From assembly GCF_003790525.1 (NCBI RefSeq), contig NZ_CP033635.1: 64,000 nucleotides of DNA; one strand, given 5' to 3'. Positions within the stretch are counted from its first letter, which is position 1. The number at the start of each line of letters is the position of its first letter. This document shows, piece after piece, positions 54,672-60,733 of the stretch. The stretch comes from Escherichia coli (GTDB lineage Bacteria > Pseudomonadota > Gammaproteobacteria > Enterobacterales > Enterobacteriaceae). The notes beneath the pieces are model-generated. The model saw only the letters and a program-made list of their open reading frames with translations. It was not told where the DNA came from and did no database searches. The translations under genes and the position numbers were made by a program.

Positions 54672-56324
54672 ATGTTAGCGCAGCTTTTTGAGCAGTTGTT
54701 TCAATCGATAGACTCTACACTGATCACCAATATTTTCATCTGGGCTGTTATATTCGTATTTTTATCAGCGTGGTGGTGTGACAAAAAAAATATACATAGT
54801 AAGTTTAGAGAATATGCTCCAACCTTAATGGGGGCATTAGGTATTCTGGGTACTTTCATTGGTATTATTATTGGGTTACTCAATTTTAATACTGAAAGTA
54901 TTGATACCAGCATCCCCGTATTATTAGGCGGCCTAAAAACAGCATTCATTACAAGCATTGTAGGTATGTTTTTTGCCATTTTATTTAATGGAATGGATGC
55001 TTTCTTTTTTGCCAATAAACGAAGTGCGTTAGCAGAAAATAACCCTGAATCTGTTACACCTGAACATATCTATCATGAATTAAAAGAGCAGAACCAGACT
55101 CTGACTAAATTAGTCTCGGGTATTAACGGTGATAGTGAAGGTTCTCTTATTGCTCAAATAAAATTACTACGTACTGAGATTAGCGATTCCTCGCAGGCAC
55201 AATTAGCTAATCACACTCATTTCAGTAATAAGCTTTGGGAACAACTTGAACAATTTGCAGATCTAATGGCAAAAGGTGCTACAGAACAAATTATTGATGC
55301 TTTACGACAAGTCATTATTGATTTTAATGAAAATTTAACTGAACAGTTTGGTGAAAACTTTAAAGCACTTGATGCCTCTGTAAAAAAACTTGTTGAGTGG
55401 CAGGAAAATTATAAAACGCAAGTTGAGCTGATGTCAGAACAATATCAACAAAGTGTCGAGTCTCTGGTTGAAACAAAAACTGCGGTTGCCGGGATTTGGG
55501 AAGAATGTAAAGAAATTCCTCTGGCTATGTCTGAACTGCGTGAAGTGCTTCAGGTGAACCAACATCAAATCAGCGAACTCTCCCGCCATTTAGAAACCTT
55601 TGTCGCCATCCGCGATAAAGCTACAACCGTATTACCTGAAATACAGAACAAAATGGCTGAAGTGGGTGAACTGCTGAAATCCGGAGCTGCAAATGTTAGT
55701 GCATCTCTTGAGCAAACCAGCCAGCAAATACTTCTTAATGCAGATTCAATGCGCGTGGCCCTGGATGAAGGTACCGAAGGATTCAGACAATCGGTTACCC
55801 AAACACAACAAGCATTTGCCTCGATGGCACATGATGTCAGCAATTCCTCCGAAACTCTAACCAGCACGTTAGGTGAAACAATTACTGAAATGAAACAAAG
55901 TGGTGAAGAATTCCTGAAGTCACTAGAGTCGCACTCGAAAGAATTGCATAGAAATATGGAACAAAATACGACTAATGTAATTGATATGTTCAGTAAGACT
56001 GGTGAAAAGATTAACCATCAACTATCCAGTAATGCCGATAATATGTTTGATTCAATCCAGACATCATTTGATAAGGCAAGTGCAGGGCTGACTTCTCAAG
56101 TCAGAGAATCAATTGAAAAATTTGCTCTATCCATCAACGAGCAGTTACATGCTTTTGAGCAAGCAACTGAACGTGAGATGAACCGTGAAATGCAATCATT
56201 AGGTAATGCTCTGCTTTCAATCAGCAAAGGTTTTGTCGGTAACTATGAAAAACTTATTAAAGATTACCAAATAATTATGGGGCAGTTACAAGCATTAATT
56301 TCTGCTAATAAACATCGAGGGTAA
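54672..56324 (+). CDS. zorA: Zorya ZorA (MotA/ExbB/TolQ-like membrane protein with long coiled-coil tail)
   Basis: N-terminal multi-TM region followed by a long, heptad-rich, low-complexity tail; start taken at ATG 54672 (track ORF begins at an upstream GTG). Confidence 0.7.
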   Translation: MLAQLFEQLFQSIDSTLITNIFIWAVIFVFLSAWWCDKKNIHSKFREYAPTLMGALGILGTFIGIIIGLLNFNTESIDTSIPVLLGGLKTAFITSIVGMFFAILFNGMDAFFFANKRSALAENNPESVTPEHIYHELKEQNQTLTKLVSGINGDSEGSLIAQIKLLRTEISDSSQAQLANHTHFSNKLWEQLEQFADLMAKGATEQIIDALRQVIIDFNENLTEQFGENFKALDASVKKLVEWQENYKTQVELMSEQYQQSVESLVETKTAVAGIWEECKEIPLAMSELREVLQVNQHQISELSRHLETFVAIRDKATTVLPEIQNKMAEVGELLKSGAANVSASLEQTSQQILLNADSMRVALDEGTEGFRQSVTQTQQAFASMAHDVSNSSETLTSTLGETITEMKQSGEEFLKSLESHSKELHRNMEQNTTNVIDMFSKTGEKINHQLSSNADNMFDSIQTSFDKASAGLTSQVRESIEKFALSINEQLHAFEQATEREMNREMQSLGNALLSISKGFVGNYEKLIKDYQIIMGQLQALISANKHRG

Positions 56325-56330
56325 TCGATC

Positions 56331-57038
56331 ATGGATAAGATTATAGGGAAACAATTACCTAAAAAAGATCAAGATAATGAACACTGGGTATCCATGTCAG
56401 ACCTAATGGCAGGGCTGATGATGGTTTTTATGTTCATATCTATTGCTTATATGCACTACGTACGTATTGAAAAAGAAAAAATTAAAGAAGTTGCCGTAGC
56501 CTACGAGAATGCTCAGTTACAGCTTTATAATGCTCTGGATATTGAGTTTGCAAAGGATTTGCAAGACTGGGATGCAGAGATCGATAAGCAGACTCTGGAG
56601 GTTCGATTTAAATCACCGGATGTTTTATTTGGCTTAGGAAGCACAGAGCTTAAACCAAAGTTTAAACTCATTCTTGACGACTTCTTTCCTCGCTACCTAA
56701 AAGTTCTTGATAATTATCAAGAACATATTACTGAAGTCCGCATTGAAGGTCACACAAGTACTGACTGGACTGGAACAACGAATCCTGATATTGCTTATTT
56801 TAATAATATGGCACTATCACAAGGTCGTACACGTGCAGTATTACAATACGTTTATGATATAAAAAATATCGCGACACACCAACAATGGGTTAAAAGTAAA
56901 TTTGCCGCAGTAGGTTATTCATCTGCACATCCCATTCTTGATAAAACCGGCAAGGAGGATCCTAATCGCTCTCGTCGTGTCACCTTCAAAGTTGTAACAA
57001 ATGCCGAGTTGCAGATTAGAAAGATTATTCAGGAGTAA
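56331..57038 (+). CDS. zorB: Zorya ZorB (MotB/OmpA-like peptidoglycan-binding protein)
   Basis: N-terminal TM helix with Asp (SMSDLMAGLMMVFMFI) and C-terminal OmpA-like region; 6 bp after zorA. Confidence 0.7.
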   Translation: MDKIIGKQLPKKDQDNEHWVSMSDLMAGLMMVFMFISIAYMHYVRIEKEKIKEVAVAYENAQLQLYNALDIEFAKDLQDWDAEIDKQTLEVRFKSPDVLFGLGSTELKPKFKLILDDFFPRYLKVLDNYQEHITEVRIEGHTSTDWTGTTNPDIAYFNNMALSQGRTRAVLQYVYDIKNIATHQQWVKSKFAAVGYSSAHPILDKTGKEDPNRSRRVTFKVVTNAELQIRKIIQE

Positions 57039-57041
57039 GAG

Positions 57042-58145
57042 ATGAAATTATCTATCGACATTTCAGAACTTATTCAATTAGGGAAGAAAATGTTACCAGA
57101 AGGAGTCGATTTTTTTCTGGATGAATCCCCTATTGACTTTGATCCTATAGATATTGAGTTATCCACGGGTAAAGAAGTTAGTATCGAAGATCTTGACCCT
57201 GGTAGCGGGCTAATCTCTTATCATGGCCGCCAGGTTCTTTTATATATTAGGGACCATTCAGGGCGTTATGATGCGGCTATCATCGATGGCGAAAAAGGAA
57301 AACGTTTTCATATTGCCTGGTGCAGAACTCTTGATGAAATGCGCCATAAAAATCGATTTGAAAGGTATCATGCAACTAACCGCATAGATGGTTTATTCGA
57401 AATTGATGATGGTTCAGGCCGGAGCCAGGATGTTGATTTACGGGTATGTATGAATTGTCTGGAACGACTTAATTACAAAGGAAGTATTGATAAACAAAGG
57501 AAAAGAGAGATTTTTAAATCATTCTCATTAAATGAGTTTTTTTCAGATTATAGTACCTGTTTTCGTCATATGCCTAAGGGTATCTATGACAAAACAAATA
57601 GTGGGTATGTCGAAAACTGGAAAGATATATCAAAATCAATACGAGAAAAGGCCAAGTATACTTGTAATGATTGTGGTGTGAATTTATCAACCGCCAAAAA
57701 CTTGTGCCATGTCCATCATAAAAATGGCATCAAATATGATAATCACCATGAAAACCTTCTTGTTCTGTGTAAGGATTGCCATCGTAAACAGCCCCTCCAT
57801 GAAGGTATATTCGTTACCCAAGCTGAGATGGCTATCATTCAACGTTTACGTTCCCAACAAGGGTTATTAAAAGCCGAATCCTGGAATGAAATATATGACC
57901 TGACTGATCCATCAGTACATGGTGATATTAATATGATGCAACATAAAGGCTTTCAACCTCCTGTTCCTGGGTTAGATCTTCAAAACTCAGAACATGAAAT
58001 TATTGCAACCGTAGAAGCAGCATGGCCAGGCCTTAAAATTGCAGTTAACCTTACTCCCGCCGAAGTCGAAGGATGGAGAATATATACCGTGGGTGAGCTG
58101 GTTAAAGAAATACAAACAGGAGCCTTTACGTCAGCAACGTTGTAA
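57042..58145 (+). CDS. zorE: Zorya type II ZorE (HNH endonuclease)
   Basis: HNH/zinc-finger motif CNDCGVNL...HVHHKNG...DNHHENLLVLCKDCH; 3 bp after zorB. Confidence 0.7.
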   Translation: MKLSIDISELIQLGKKMLPEGVDFFLDESPIDFDPIDIELSTGKEVSIEDLDPGSGLISYHGRQVLLYIRDHSGRYDAAIIDGEKGKRFHIAWCRTLDEMRHKNRFERYHATNRIDGLFEIDDGSGRSQDVDLRVCMNCLERLNYKGSIDKQRKREIFKSFSLNEFFSDYSTCFRHMPKGIYDKTNSGYVENWKDISKSIREKAKYTCNDCGVNLSTAKNLCHVHHKNGIKYDNHHENLLVLCKDCHRKQPLHEGIFVTQAEMAIIQRLRSQQGLLKAESWNEIYDLTDPSVHGDINMMQHKGFQPPVPGLDLQNSEHEIIATVEAAWPGLKIAVNLTPAEVEGWRIYTVGELVKEIQTGAFTSATL

Positions 58146-58156
58146 ATTCCGAAACT

Positions 58157-58198
58157 CCGTGAAAGTTAAGACTTTCACGGAAGATAAATAAAATTTTC
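58157..58198 (+). terminator. Intrinsic terminator candidate downstream of zorE
   Basis: ccgtgaaagt / actttcacgg 10-bp stem with 4-nt loop followed by an A/T-rich tract. Confidence 0.45.
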
Positions 58199-58254
58199 CT
58201 GATTTGTGACTCAAATTACAAAAGTCGTTTATGGCATAACTTGTCTGTTTTTTT

Positions 58255-58273
58255 GGTGTAATAGGTATAAAGG
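58255..58273. promoter_or_regulatory. Orphan GGTATA-repeat (NanR operator-like) site upstream of the truncated nanM duplicate
   Basis: ggtgtaataggtataaagg, resembling the site at 22864-22884. Confidence 0.4.
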
Positions 58274-58354
58274 CATATGCTATGGTTAGCCTTATATTTA
58301 AAACTTTCCTCATACGGGTGAAGGTTAAAGCTTGGTAGATAGGTTACAGTCACA

Positions 58355-58965
58355 ATGAATAAAGCAATAACGGTGCTTGCTATAATGATGGCTTCATTTT
58401 CCGTAAATGCGTATGTATTACCGGAAACGCCTGTGCCATTTAAAAGTGGTACCGGAGAAATTGATAACAACACTGTCTACATTGGTTTAGGTAGCGCAGG
58501 TACGGCATGGTACAAGCTGGAGAAACAGACCAAAGATAAAAAAATGGACAGCGTTAGCTGCATTTCCTGGTGGACCGAGAGATCAAGCAACCTCTGCATT
58601 TATTGATGGCAATCTGTATGTGTTTGGCGGCATTGGCAAAAACAGCGAGGGCTTGACTCAGGTATTTAATGACGTACACAAATACAACCCCAAAACCAAT
58701 AGCTGGGTTAAATTGATGTCGCACGCGCCGATGGGCATGGCGGGTCATGTGACATTTGTACACAACGGCAAGGCTTATGTTACTGGCGGTGTTAACCAGA
58801 ATATCTTCAACGGCTATTTTGAAGATCTTAACGAAGCTGGAAAAGATTCAACATACCGAACGCCGGAGAACTGGACGACGACACCACGAAGCAGTCATTT
58901 CAGTCGGGGGATGATTGTAGACAAATTTGTTGACGCTATTTTGCGGTTTTGGCGTGAAGGGTGAG
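58355..58965 (+). pseudogene. Truncated, frameshifted duplicate of nanM fused to the 3' end of nanS
   Basis: N-terminal NanM-like sequence with a +1 frameshift in a poly-A run; continues NanM-like to ...EAGKDST, then jumps to NanS C-terminal sequence; 3' flank matches the nanS 3' flank at 26196-26250. Confidence 0.8.
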
Positions 58966-58971
58966 CATTCA

Positions 58972-59613
58972 TTAATTTGCATCCATCAACGCTTTTAACT
59001 GCTCCGGCGAAAACGGTGGTTTGCGTCGGTGCAACATCGCATGGCAATTAGGGCACACAGGAAGCAAATCATTAACTGGATCCAGCTGGTAATCCTCTTT
59101 AATGGCTGAAAGCGGCACCAGGTGATGCATATGGATAAAACCCTCAGCGATATCGCCATAGATCTTCACCAGATCAACGCCGCATACGTTGCACTGGCAT
59201 CCATGATGTTCGACCGCTTTATCTCGGGCCTTTTTATCGCGTTCATAGCGGTTTACTGTCACCTTTATCGCCGCACCTTCAACGTATGTCTCCTGCGACG
59301 GCAACTCATCCGGGAACAGAACGTCGGCTATGGGAGCCGCAGCGGCTTTATCCTGATGAATATGAAATCCCTGCTCTATGAGTAGTTTGACGCATTTAGA
59401 TTTTATTCCGCCGGTGAAATCCGCAGGGGTAAATTGCGTCCCCGTCATCAATGTCGCTGCGATGCCAGCAATCGCCTTCGAGGGGTAACGTCGGCCATGA
59501 TATTCAATCTTATACAACCGCGCAGGCTGGAACTGATGAGTTTCTCCCGCATCCCATAAATGGATAGCTTCGATGATATACCGCCGCGGAAGATGATCGG
59601 GGAGTTTATTCAT
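58972..59613 (-). CDS. HNH endonuclease-domain protein (213 aa), McrA-like architecture
   Basis: C-terminal HNH motif CQCNVCGVDL...HMHHLVPLS...NDLLPVCPNCHAMLH; N-terminal putative DNA-recognition domain. Confidence 0.65.
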   Translation of the reverse strand: MNKLPDHLPRRYIIEAIHLWDAGETHQFQPARLYKIEYHGRRYPSKAIAGIAATLMTGTQFTPADFTGGIKSKCVKLLIEQGFHIHQDKAAAAPIADVLFPDELPSQETYVEGAAIKVTVNRYERDKKARDKAVEHHGCQCNVCGVDLVKIYGDIAEGFIHMHHLVPLSAIKEDYQLDPVNDLLPVCPNCHAMLHRRKPPFSPEQLKALMDAN

Positions 59614-59692
59614 GGAGAATGTCCTTATACGTTCTCAGAACAGGCAGCAAAAAAACAAATGAGATCAAGGTAATATATCTTCACTTGCAGGC

Positions 59693-60622
59693 TTGAACAG
59701 CAGAAAATTTGCGAGCATGATCGCAACTATTTCACTGCCAGGGATATCAATGGCTTCCAGTAAATCGCTACAGCAGGCAATCGCCAATATAAAAATCTGG
59801 CACAAGGGTGAACAGCGCGCGCCGCATAAACCATTGTTACTGCTATACGTATTAGCGGGATACCTGAATGGGCATCCGCGCCTTTTCGATTATGGATTGG
59901 AAATCTACGAACCTCTGCACAATTTACTGGAACGTTTTGGGCCACAGCGTTCACAGTACCGACCTGATATGCCGTTCTGGCGATTACAAGGCGACGGATT
60001 CTGGCAATTACACAATGCCGAGCTTTGCTCAACAGCAGGGAGCAGCCGACAACCGCCAGTGAAGGAACTGAACGAATACCACGTTGCAGGCGGTTTCGAT
60101 GAACAGCACTACGCCCTGGTAACCGGCAATAAAAAACTCATCAATACTCTGGCGCAACAGATACTCGAAGCGCACTTCACCGAGAGTATTCAGGAAGAAA
60201 TTGCTGACGAGCTGGGTTTTGATCTCCAGCAAATCCGTAAACAGCGTGACCCGTTATTTCGCAAAAATGTATTACGCGCTTATAACTACCAGTGCGCGAT
60301 ATGTGGCTTTAATATGCGCCACGACGACACCACCGTCGCGCTGGAAGCGGCGCATATAAAATGGAAACAGCACGGCGGTCCTTGTGAAATTCCTAATGGC
60401 CTGGCGCTTTGCGCAATTCACCATAAAGCCTTTGATAAAGGATCGATTGGCCTGGATGAAAATATGCGGGTACTGGTCTCGGATGCGGTAAACGGCGGAG
60501 GGATCGTTGAGAGATTATTCTGGGATTTTGATGGGAAAACTATTGCGTTGCCACAGGTGCGTAAAAATTACCCTTTTGAGGGGTTTGTGGAGTGGCATCG
60601 AAAAGAGGTTTTTAGGGGGTGA
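59693..60622 (+). CDS. HNH endonuclease-domain protein (309 aa) with N-terminal putative DNA-recognition domain
   Basis: HNH motif CAICGFNM...EAAHIKW...NGLALCAIHHKAFD; start may be at a downstream Met. Confidence 0.65.
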   Translation: MNSRKFASMIATISLPGISMASSKSLQQAIANIKIWHKGEQRAPHKPLLLLYVLAGYLNGHPRLFDYGLEIYEPLHNLLERFGPQRSQYRPDMPFWRLQGDGFWQLHNAELCSTAGSSRQPPVKELNEYHVAGGFDEQHYALVTGNKKLINTLAQQILEAHFTESIQEEIADELGFDLQQIRKQRDPLFRKNVLRAYNYQCAICGFNMRHDDTTVALEAAHIKWKQHGGPCEIPNGLALCAIHHKAFDKGSIGLDENMRVLVSDAVNGGGIVERLFWDFDGKTIALPQVRKNYPFEGFVEWHRKEVFRG

Positions 60623-60733
60623 GGTTGATAACTATCGCGTCCCTATAATCTTGCCATCTCGTGCATTGAGATGTTAAAAGCTACAAATGTTCTCCCTATT
60701 TTTCAATGTAGACATTTATAGCAATATCAAAAT

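Follow-up and report, generated by a model that had tools for sequence, protein, structure and literature searches.

A probable fossil of a fourth NanR-type promoter between zorE and a nanM remnant in an Escherichia coli defence island

The Escherichia coli sialoregulon is described with three NanR operators, at nanA, nanC and nanX. What, then, is the origin of a NanR operator-like site that lies between the type II Zorya gene zorE and a remnant of nanM, and does it still control anything? We addressed these questions for a 64-kb segment of an E. coli chromosome (henceforth the window, to which all coordinates refer) that is almost colinear with strain C4. The literature that we searched speaks of three NanR-controlled operons (four targets if fimB is counted) and mentions neither a zorE-nanM junction nor the promoter holding the site, which we name P*. 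We are fairly confident that the whole is best explained by a fossil, a fourth NanR-type promoter that is a relic of a zorE-P*-nanM arrangement. The site in the window most likely has no present function and controls nothing useful, since downstream of it lie only a dead nanM and then a convergent HNH endonuclease gene.

A tripartite operator within a promoter module

The operator-like site occupies positions 58255-58277 on the plus strand and reads GGTGTA-ata-GGTATA-aa-GGCATA, that is, three hexamers separated by spacers of 3 nt and then 2 nt. This register is that of the nanA, nanC and nanX operators, whose fixed spacing is therefore kept. A preliminary description of the locus had reported a tandem GGTATA-type motif ending at 58273; the letters at 58255-58273 (GGTGTAATAGGTATAAAGG) take in repeats 1 and 2 whole but only the initial two bases of the third repeat, which runs past that end so that the full site closes at 58277. 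The layout of a NanR operator is thus real, but only the central hexamer (58264-58269) is an exact GGTATA, and the hexamers on either side of it, GGTGTA and GGCATA, match at 5/6 positions each. Compared with the consensus GGTATA-aca-GGTATA-aa-GGTATA, the site departs at two hexamer positions and one spacer position. The window shows no excess of single GGTATA hexamers (27 versus 20.2 +/- 4.5 expected). The pattern GGTATAN3GGTATAN2GGTATA with up to three mismatches matches twice in the 64 kb, at the P* site and at the nanC operator (22864-22886), against an expectation of 0.04, and none of 100 shuffles reached two tripartite matches.

Inspection of the surroundings confirmed that the site sits between a hairpin behind zorE and a pseudogene: its first base lies 110 bp past the zorE stop (58145) and its last 78 bp 5' of the pseudogene ATG (58355). 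The hairpin (58155-58183, plus strand) has a CTCCGTGAAAGT-taag-ACTTTCACGGAG-type stem with an MFE of -16.0 kcal/mol and is terminator-like, without a T-run, for which reason the terminator scan did not call it. That scan found no intrinsic terminator, a sigma-70 scan found no promoter over the P* operator, and a search for structured RNA gave no Rfam match at E <= 1 in 56000-64000.

The operator had been called an orphan, yet a full promoter module is present, made up of a CRP-like site, the operator and a leader. The CRP-like site, TGTGA-ctcaaa-TTACA (58205-58220, plus strand), aligns with the TGTGA/AGTGA-N6-TnnCA elements of PnanC in the window and of PnanX and PnanA in K-12, and is predicted on this basis to bind CRP. 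The short leader (58278-58334, plus strand) is homologous to the start of the PnanC and PnanX leaders and contains the motif CTTTCCTCAT..GGGTGA; its homology to the long nanC leader ends at about 58325. From the CRP-like site through the leader, P* is homologous to PnanA, PnanC and PnanX, and a sialic-acid gene (nanM) follows it. The resemblance to the motif upstream of nanC, which the preliminary description had noted, reflects homology, as operator and flanks align with PnanC (58203-58273 versus 22806-22882, 71% identity, TGTGA-N6-TnnCA element included). P* would accordingly be the fourth sialic-acid promoter of the NanR and CRP type, paralogous to PnanA, PnanC and PnanX.

PnanC, which lies in the fimB-nanC region, is the relative closest at hand. 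The native nanC operator of the nanCMS locus (22864-22886, plus strand; GGTATA-aca-GGTATA-aa-GGTGCA) is located about 430 bp upstream of nanC, and the two promoters have in common three hexamers spaced by 3 and 2 nt, a TGTGA-N6 CRP-like site, the leader motif CTTTC(C)TCAT..GGGTGA and a downstream nanM, with a core promoter identity of about 71%. They differ in that P* has neither nanC nor the long leader of about 400 nt, which places nanM only 78 bp past the operator, and in that the gene downstream of P* is a pseudogene in the window. Mismatches affect repeats 1 and 3 of P* (GGTGTA and GGCATA) and only repeat 3 of PnanC (GGTGCA). P* also lacks the operator GATC of PnanC, and its CRP core lies 50 nt from the operator rather than 55 nt. 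Over the whole family this distance is 50-51 nt in P* versus 54-55 nt in PnanA, PnanC and PnanX, about half a helical turn closer, and given the spacing shorter by 4-5 bp the regulation of P* may differ from that of the known promoters. All three known NanR operators hold a Dam GATC within 5 bp (PMC5155068), which in PnanA, PnanC and PnanX forms part of GATCTGGTATA; the corresponding letters of P* contain no GATC in the window (TTTTTTTGGTGTA) or in strain S43 (TTTTTATGGTATA). We regard the adjacent GATC as a trait common to the known operators and not as a proven requirement for binding.

The nanXY (yjhBC) promoter of K-12 belongs to the same family, carries the same leader motif and resides at the same leuX hotspot as P*. 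By contrast, the K-12 nanX operator is perfect, has an adjacent GATC and drives intact genes, none of which holds for P* in the window; moreover, nanXY is transcribed away from leuX and P* towards it, and overall identity is only about 52-55%. The nanA operator between nanR and nanA, (GGTATA)3, has the same architecture as P*: the P* alleles of S43, TW14425 and GF4-3 are identical to it over 23/23 bp, whereas the window allele differs at 3/23 positions.

Island structure and the second nanM

On the left of the window the genes run iatD ... uxuBA, gntP, fimH-A, fimE (20172-20768, minus strand) and fimB (21246-21848, minus strand), followed by the long fimB-nanC intergenic region, nanC (23300-24019), nanM (24036-25145, plus strand) and a truncated nanS. 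Next comes a defence island of about 32 kb that encodes a UvrD-type helicase, very large DEAD/DEAH helicases, a methyltransferase, a protein of the STY4851/ECs_5259 family and the type II Zorya system zorA2-zorB2-zorE, in which zorE (annotation from the colinear strain C4) occupies 57042-58145. Beyond P* and the nanM remnant, the HNH endonuclease is encoded on the minus strand (58972-59613) and a phosphorothioate-dependent restriction endonuclease on the plus strand (59693-60622), and tRNA-Leu (leuX) stands at the window's end. The usual borders of the leuX hotspot are nanCMS and ahr (bioRxiv 10.1101/2020.03.26.007484). As a side observation, the native nanS (25183-26245 region) appears truncated; it is annotated in C4 as a sialate O-acetylesterase lacking its C-terminus, and S43 has this same truncation.

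Direct repeats of a stretch running from nanM to a small ORF bracket the island (26246-58334): 24019-24535 corresponds to 58335-58852 at 95% identity, and 26061-26244 to 58847-59009 at 77%. The left partner (24019-26245, plus strand) comprises the native nanM, the truncated nanS and the small ORF and is 98% identical to the nanM-nanS'-hyp segment of S43. Its first part, 24019-24535, begins right past the nanC stop and consists of the 16-bp nanC-nanM spacer and the first 166 or so codons of nanM. The right partner (58335-58852, plus strand) is a second copy of this spacer and nanM 5' part, 95.0% identical over 518 bp. What had been described as a nanM-like gene is thus E. coli's own nanM and not a foreign gene. 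The left repeat is preceded by the chromosomal PnanC-nanC, the right one by the island-borne zorE-P*.

The right-hand nanM is a pseudogene. Reading from the ATG at 58355 on the plus strand, an extra A in the A-run 58538-58544 causes a +1 frameshift, the resulting ORF (58355-58606) terminates early, and homology to the native nanM ends at 58852, which cuts the gene after about codon 166 of 368. The C4 annotation likewise lists the relic as frameshifted and C-terminally truncated. No intact gene is found under the P* operator in the window, where the next gene, encoding the HNH endonuclease, is on the opposite strand.

How might this duplication have arisen? Positions 57000-58847 on the right side match the zorE-P*-nanM 5' part of S43, after which the window skips about 1.5 kb of S43 and continues with the HNH gene. 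On the model that we favour, the island would have entered by homologous recombination through nanM, in a single (Campbell-type) crossover between a nanCMS chromosome and a circularised or transferred S43-like segment. Such an event would leave the native nanC-nanM-nanS' on the left of the island and a second, partial copy carrying the zorE-P*-nanM junction on its right, and the redundant right-hand nanM would later have been killed by the frameshift and the 1.5-kb deletion. Judging from the repeat structure, P*-nanM' is probably the scar of an island integrated by homologous recombination, and P* would then mark how a Druantia/Zorya-type island came to be joined to the leuX hotspot by way of nanM homology.

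Two other sources were considered and rejected. The nan-9 cluster is not a suitable donor, since nan-9 proteins are only 45-64% similar to the sialoregulon proteins (PMC10088187) compared with the 95% DNA identity between the relic and the native nanM. A plasmid origin fails because the plasmids carry nothing but the internally deleted relic, beside Zorya genes and IS elements, and their copies are thus derived and not the source.

P* in other genomes and the drift of its operator

The zorE-P*-nanM junction was detected in 567 of the 5426 complete E. coli genomes searched, and five plasmids carry it too; at each of the 12 E. coli loci that we looked at, P* comes directly after zorE. A search of E. 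coli genomes for more distant paralogues of P* (E <= 1e-3) yielded nothing besides these 567 orthologous copies. The preliminary description had supposed a donor locus with the operator directly before nanM, and loci of this type do exist. In S43, TW14425 and GF4-3, P* precedes a nanM that is, by annotation, intact (368 aa) and that is the sole nanM copy, and the operator read directly in these three genomes is the perfect GGTATA-aca-GGTATA-aa-GGTATA. MB06022 holds nanM at one place and does not differ from S43 over a 291-bp query (the promoter and the first 84 bp of nanM; 100% identity), from which we infer that its operator is the perfect consensus as well. A further such locus is found in Escherichia sp. 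E1V33, where the degenerate operator of the window type, directly after zorE, stands before a nanM open over at least 314 codons (1310-bp locus). When 100,044 species were scanned with a degenerate pattern, P* before nanM was encountered only in E1V33; wherever another hit had an identifiable gene downstream, the site was a nanA or nanC operator. In this minority of Escherichia genomes, P* right after zorE would drive nanM without nanC. In S43, the only genome in which the left boundary was read, the defence island comes directly after uxuA, and none of gntP, the fim operon, fimB/E and nanC is present.

The nine relic loci that we read all carry one to three mismatches in the operator hexamers. 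One mismatch is present in EC974 (GGTGTA-ata-GGTATA-aa-GGTATA), two in the allele common to the window, C4, HCM-24C-3, 19SZHZ713Rt and O145 RM8843 (GGTGTA-ata-GGTATA-aa-GGCATA), and three in O157:H7 SS17, NT1N28 and plasmid pEC00-3_94k (GGTGTA-aca-GGTATA-aa-AGCATA); in O157 SS17 the CRP half-site is mutated too (TGTGG). All P* alleles agree in the central hexamer, the aa spacer and the register. Conservation in related islands, on which the preliminary description had let the motif stand or fall, is therefore seen for the central repeat and the spacing, while the outer repeats drift.

Is the operator under constraint? Among 13 P* loci (12 distinct alleles), 4/23 columns vary in the operator versus 36/203 in the flanks (Fisher p = 1.0), so the operator varies as fast as its flanks and is not protected relative to its surroundings; we find no mark of purifying selection. 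By contrast, 21-23 of the 23 operator bases are common to PnanA, PnanC and PnanX, whose overall identity is about 55-65%. The right-hand nanM is dead, and the operator before it gives no sign of constraint. Perfect operators in the genomes with an intact nanM and mismatched ones in the relics are evidence that points to decay, although this association draws on few independent lineages, with the same A-to-G change common to all relics. The degenerate operator in front of an open nanM in E1V33 argues that the variant is not simply the product of decay after the death of the gene, and it may be a working allele.

Two arrangements of the junction deserve mention in their own right. The O157/O145 type (about 470 genomes) lacks the HNH gene, and its nanM' is missing an internal stretch between roughly codons 7 and 125. 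A small number of E. coli plasmids (for example pEC00-3_94k) carry zorA2-zorB2-zorE, P* and a nanM fragment between IS elements (ISKpn26, IS1), so the chromosomal junction was mobilised as a unit.

Residual NanR binding and possible re-use

A major question is whether NanR still binds the drifted site. The (GGTATA)3 operator is bound cooperatively by three NanR dimers with a KD of about 20-40 nM; two repeats are bound about as tightly (KD 25 nM, two complexes), while binding to one repeat is as poor as to poly-AT (Horne et al. 2021, PMC8012715). Spacing is critical, as longer spacers attenuate or abolish binding, and base-specific NanR-DNA contacts were not resolved (Horne et al. 2021, PMC8012715). 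At P*, NanR dimers would bind adjacent hexamers overlapping the promoter in a cooperative manner and would be released by Neu5Ac. Repeats 1 and 2 (GGTGTA-ata-GGTATA) are in the canonical register, and NanR is probably bound there, more weakly than at the consensus. Even so, NanR binding at the window site would have no working gene left to control.

Natural operators give a measure of the variation that NanR accepts. Our operator survey comprised 68 degenerate-pattern sites, 65 of them with an identifiable nanA or nanC downstream (nanC in one case); it also returned one site that is P* before nanM and five hits without an identifiable downstream gene. In the surveyed operators repeat 3 is often GGTACA (16 sites), or GGTGCA in the case of nanC, and the ata variant of spacer 1 also occurs in operators of Citrobacter freundii and Phytobacter. 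GGCATA as repeat 3 was absent from the 65 operators with an identifiable nanA or nanC downstream. The nanR-nanA operator of Hafnia paralvei (GGTGTA-ata-GGTATA-aa-GGTATA) has the variant repeat 1 and spacer 1 in common with the window site, which equals this operator with one T-to-C change in repeat 3. Unlike the window site, the Hafnia operator has an intact third repeat and stands before a working nanA-nanT operon, a context that suggests NanR binding, and H. paralvei NanR is identical to E. coli NanR at 9/9 putative DNA-contact residues. We consider residual binding by at least two dimers at the window site somewhat more probable than its loss, since the register, the exact repeat and its 5/6 neighbours are kept and the variant forms of repeat 1 and spacer 1 recur in natural operators. 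As a minor observation from the same searches, exact enterobacterial nan operators appeared on short contigs of a Bacteroides MAG, Methylobacterium (a 265-bp contig) and Chryseobacterium, where they most likely reflect assembly contamination.

The alternative that survives best holds that the site is dead, having drifted beyond NanR binding at physiological concentration, with the promoter dead too, so that the whole is neutral junk. We rate this a possibility of lesser weight. It draws on the single exact GGTATA that is left, one repeat being poorly bound (PMC8012715), on an operator that evolves at the rate of its flanks, and on O157-type alleles that have drifted further to AGCATA, with the CRP half-site of O157 SS17 mutated as well. 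The sigma-70 scan, empty over the operator, is also in line with it. A possible reason for promoter death would be the A-to-G change in repeat 1: if TGGTATAAC serves as the extended -10 (TGnTATAAC), with CRP at about -61.5, as we propose from the letters of the site, the change would strike the -11 A. This -10 assignment, however, is deduced and does not come from a mapped start site. Also opposed to the death of the site are the outer repeats, both still 5/6 in perfect register, the use of a GGTGTA-ata first repeat by the nanA operator of H. paralvei, a species whose NanR has the same DNA-reading head, and the native nanC operator, which works with a 4/6 third repeat.

Compared with a fossil promoter that has kept some NanR affinity, re-use of the site is improbable, be it as Neu5Ac/NanR-controlled transcription from P* into defence genes or as a decoy for NanR. 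In its favour, about 10% of E. coli genomes have retained the junction, which also moves onto plasmids together with Zorya, and in the O157-type loci the phosphorothioate-dependent restriction endonuclease gene has the same orientation as P* and nanM', at a distance of only about 70 bp. However, the operator is not conserved above background, degeneracy is greatest in the very alleles that could best drive the endonuclease gene, and linkage to zorE, at 110 bp, is a simpler reason for the junction's retention. For a decoy one may cite the loss of NanR regulation with plasmid-borne reporters, which suggests that NanR is titratable (bioRxiv 10.1101/2024.10.23.619804), but one chromosomal copy makes a weak decoy. 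Slimmer still is the prospect that P* remains responsive to NanR and Neu5Ac and couples sialic-acid sensing to the adjacent phage-defence genes. Were this so, host mucus sugars would modulate expression of the defence island, through a P* transcript that runs antisense to the HNH gene in the window and, in the O157 type, enters the restriction endonuclease gene in sense orientation. Finally, a chance AT-rich GGTATA-like run in intergenic DNA, unrelated to NanR, has next to no probability and was rejected, for lone GGTATA hexamers are common in the window (27 versus about 20 expected), but the tripartite pattern is expected only 0.04 times per window, about 140 bp of flank are homologous to three known NanR-regulated promoters, and sister genomes hold a perfect consensus operator at the same position before an intact nanM.

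Read as a fossil promoter, P* would add a fourth homologous NanR-type operator-promoter to the E. coli pangenome, one that looks functional, with a perfect operator before nanM, in four of the 5426 complete E. coli genomes searched, apparently without fim and nanC, and that persists as a decaying relic in about 10% of the species' genomes, O157:H7 included. Its alleles with 0, 1, 2 and 3 mismatches form a natural series, material for testing what NanR needs in the outer repeats. A minor observation concerns the K-12 nanXY leader, which holds CACAATGAATAAG, a stretch in which 12/13 bases are those of the nanM start region (CACAATGAATAAA) and which hints that the nanXY promoter may have descended from a P*-like promoter-nanM arrangement.
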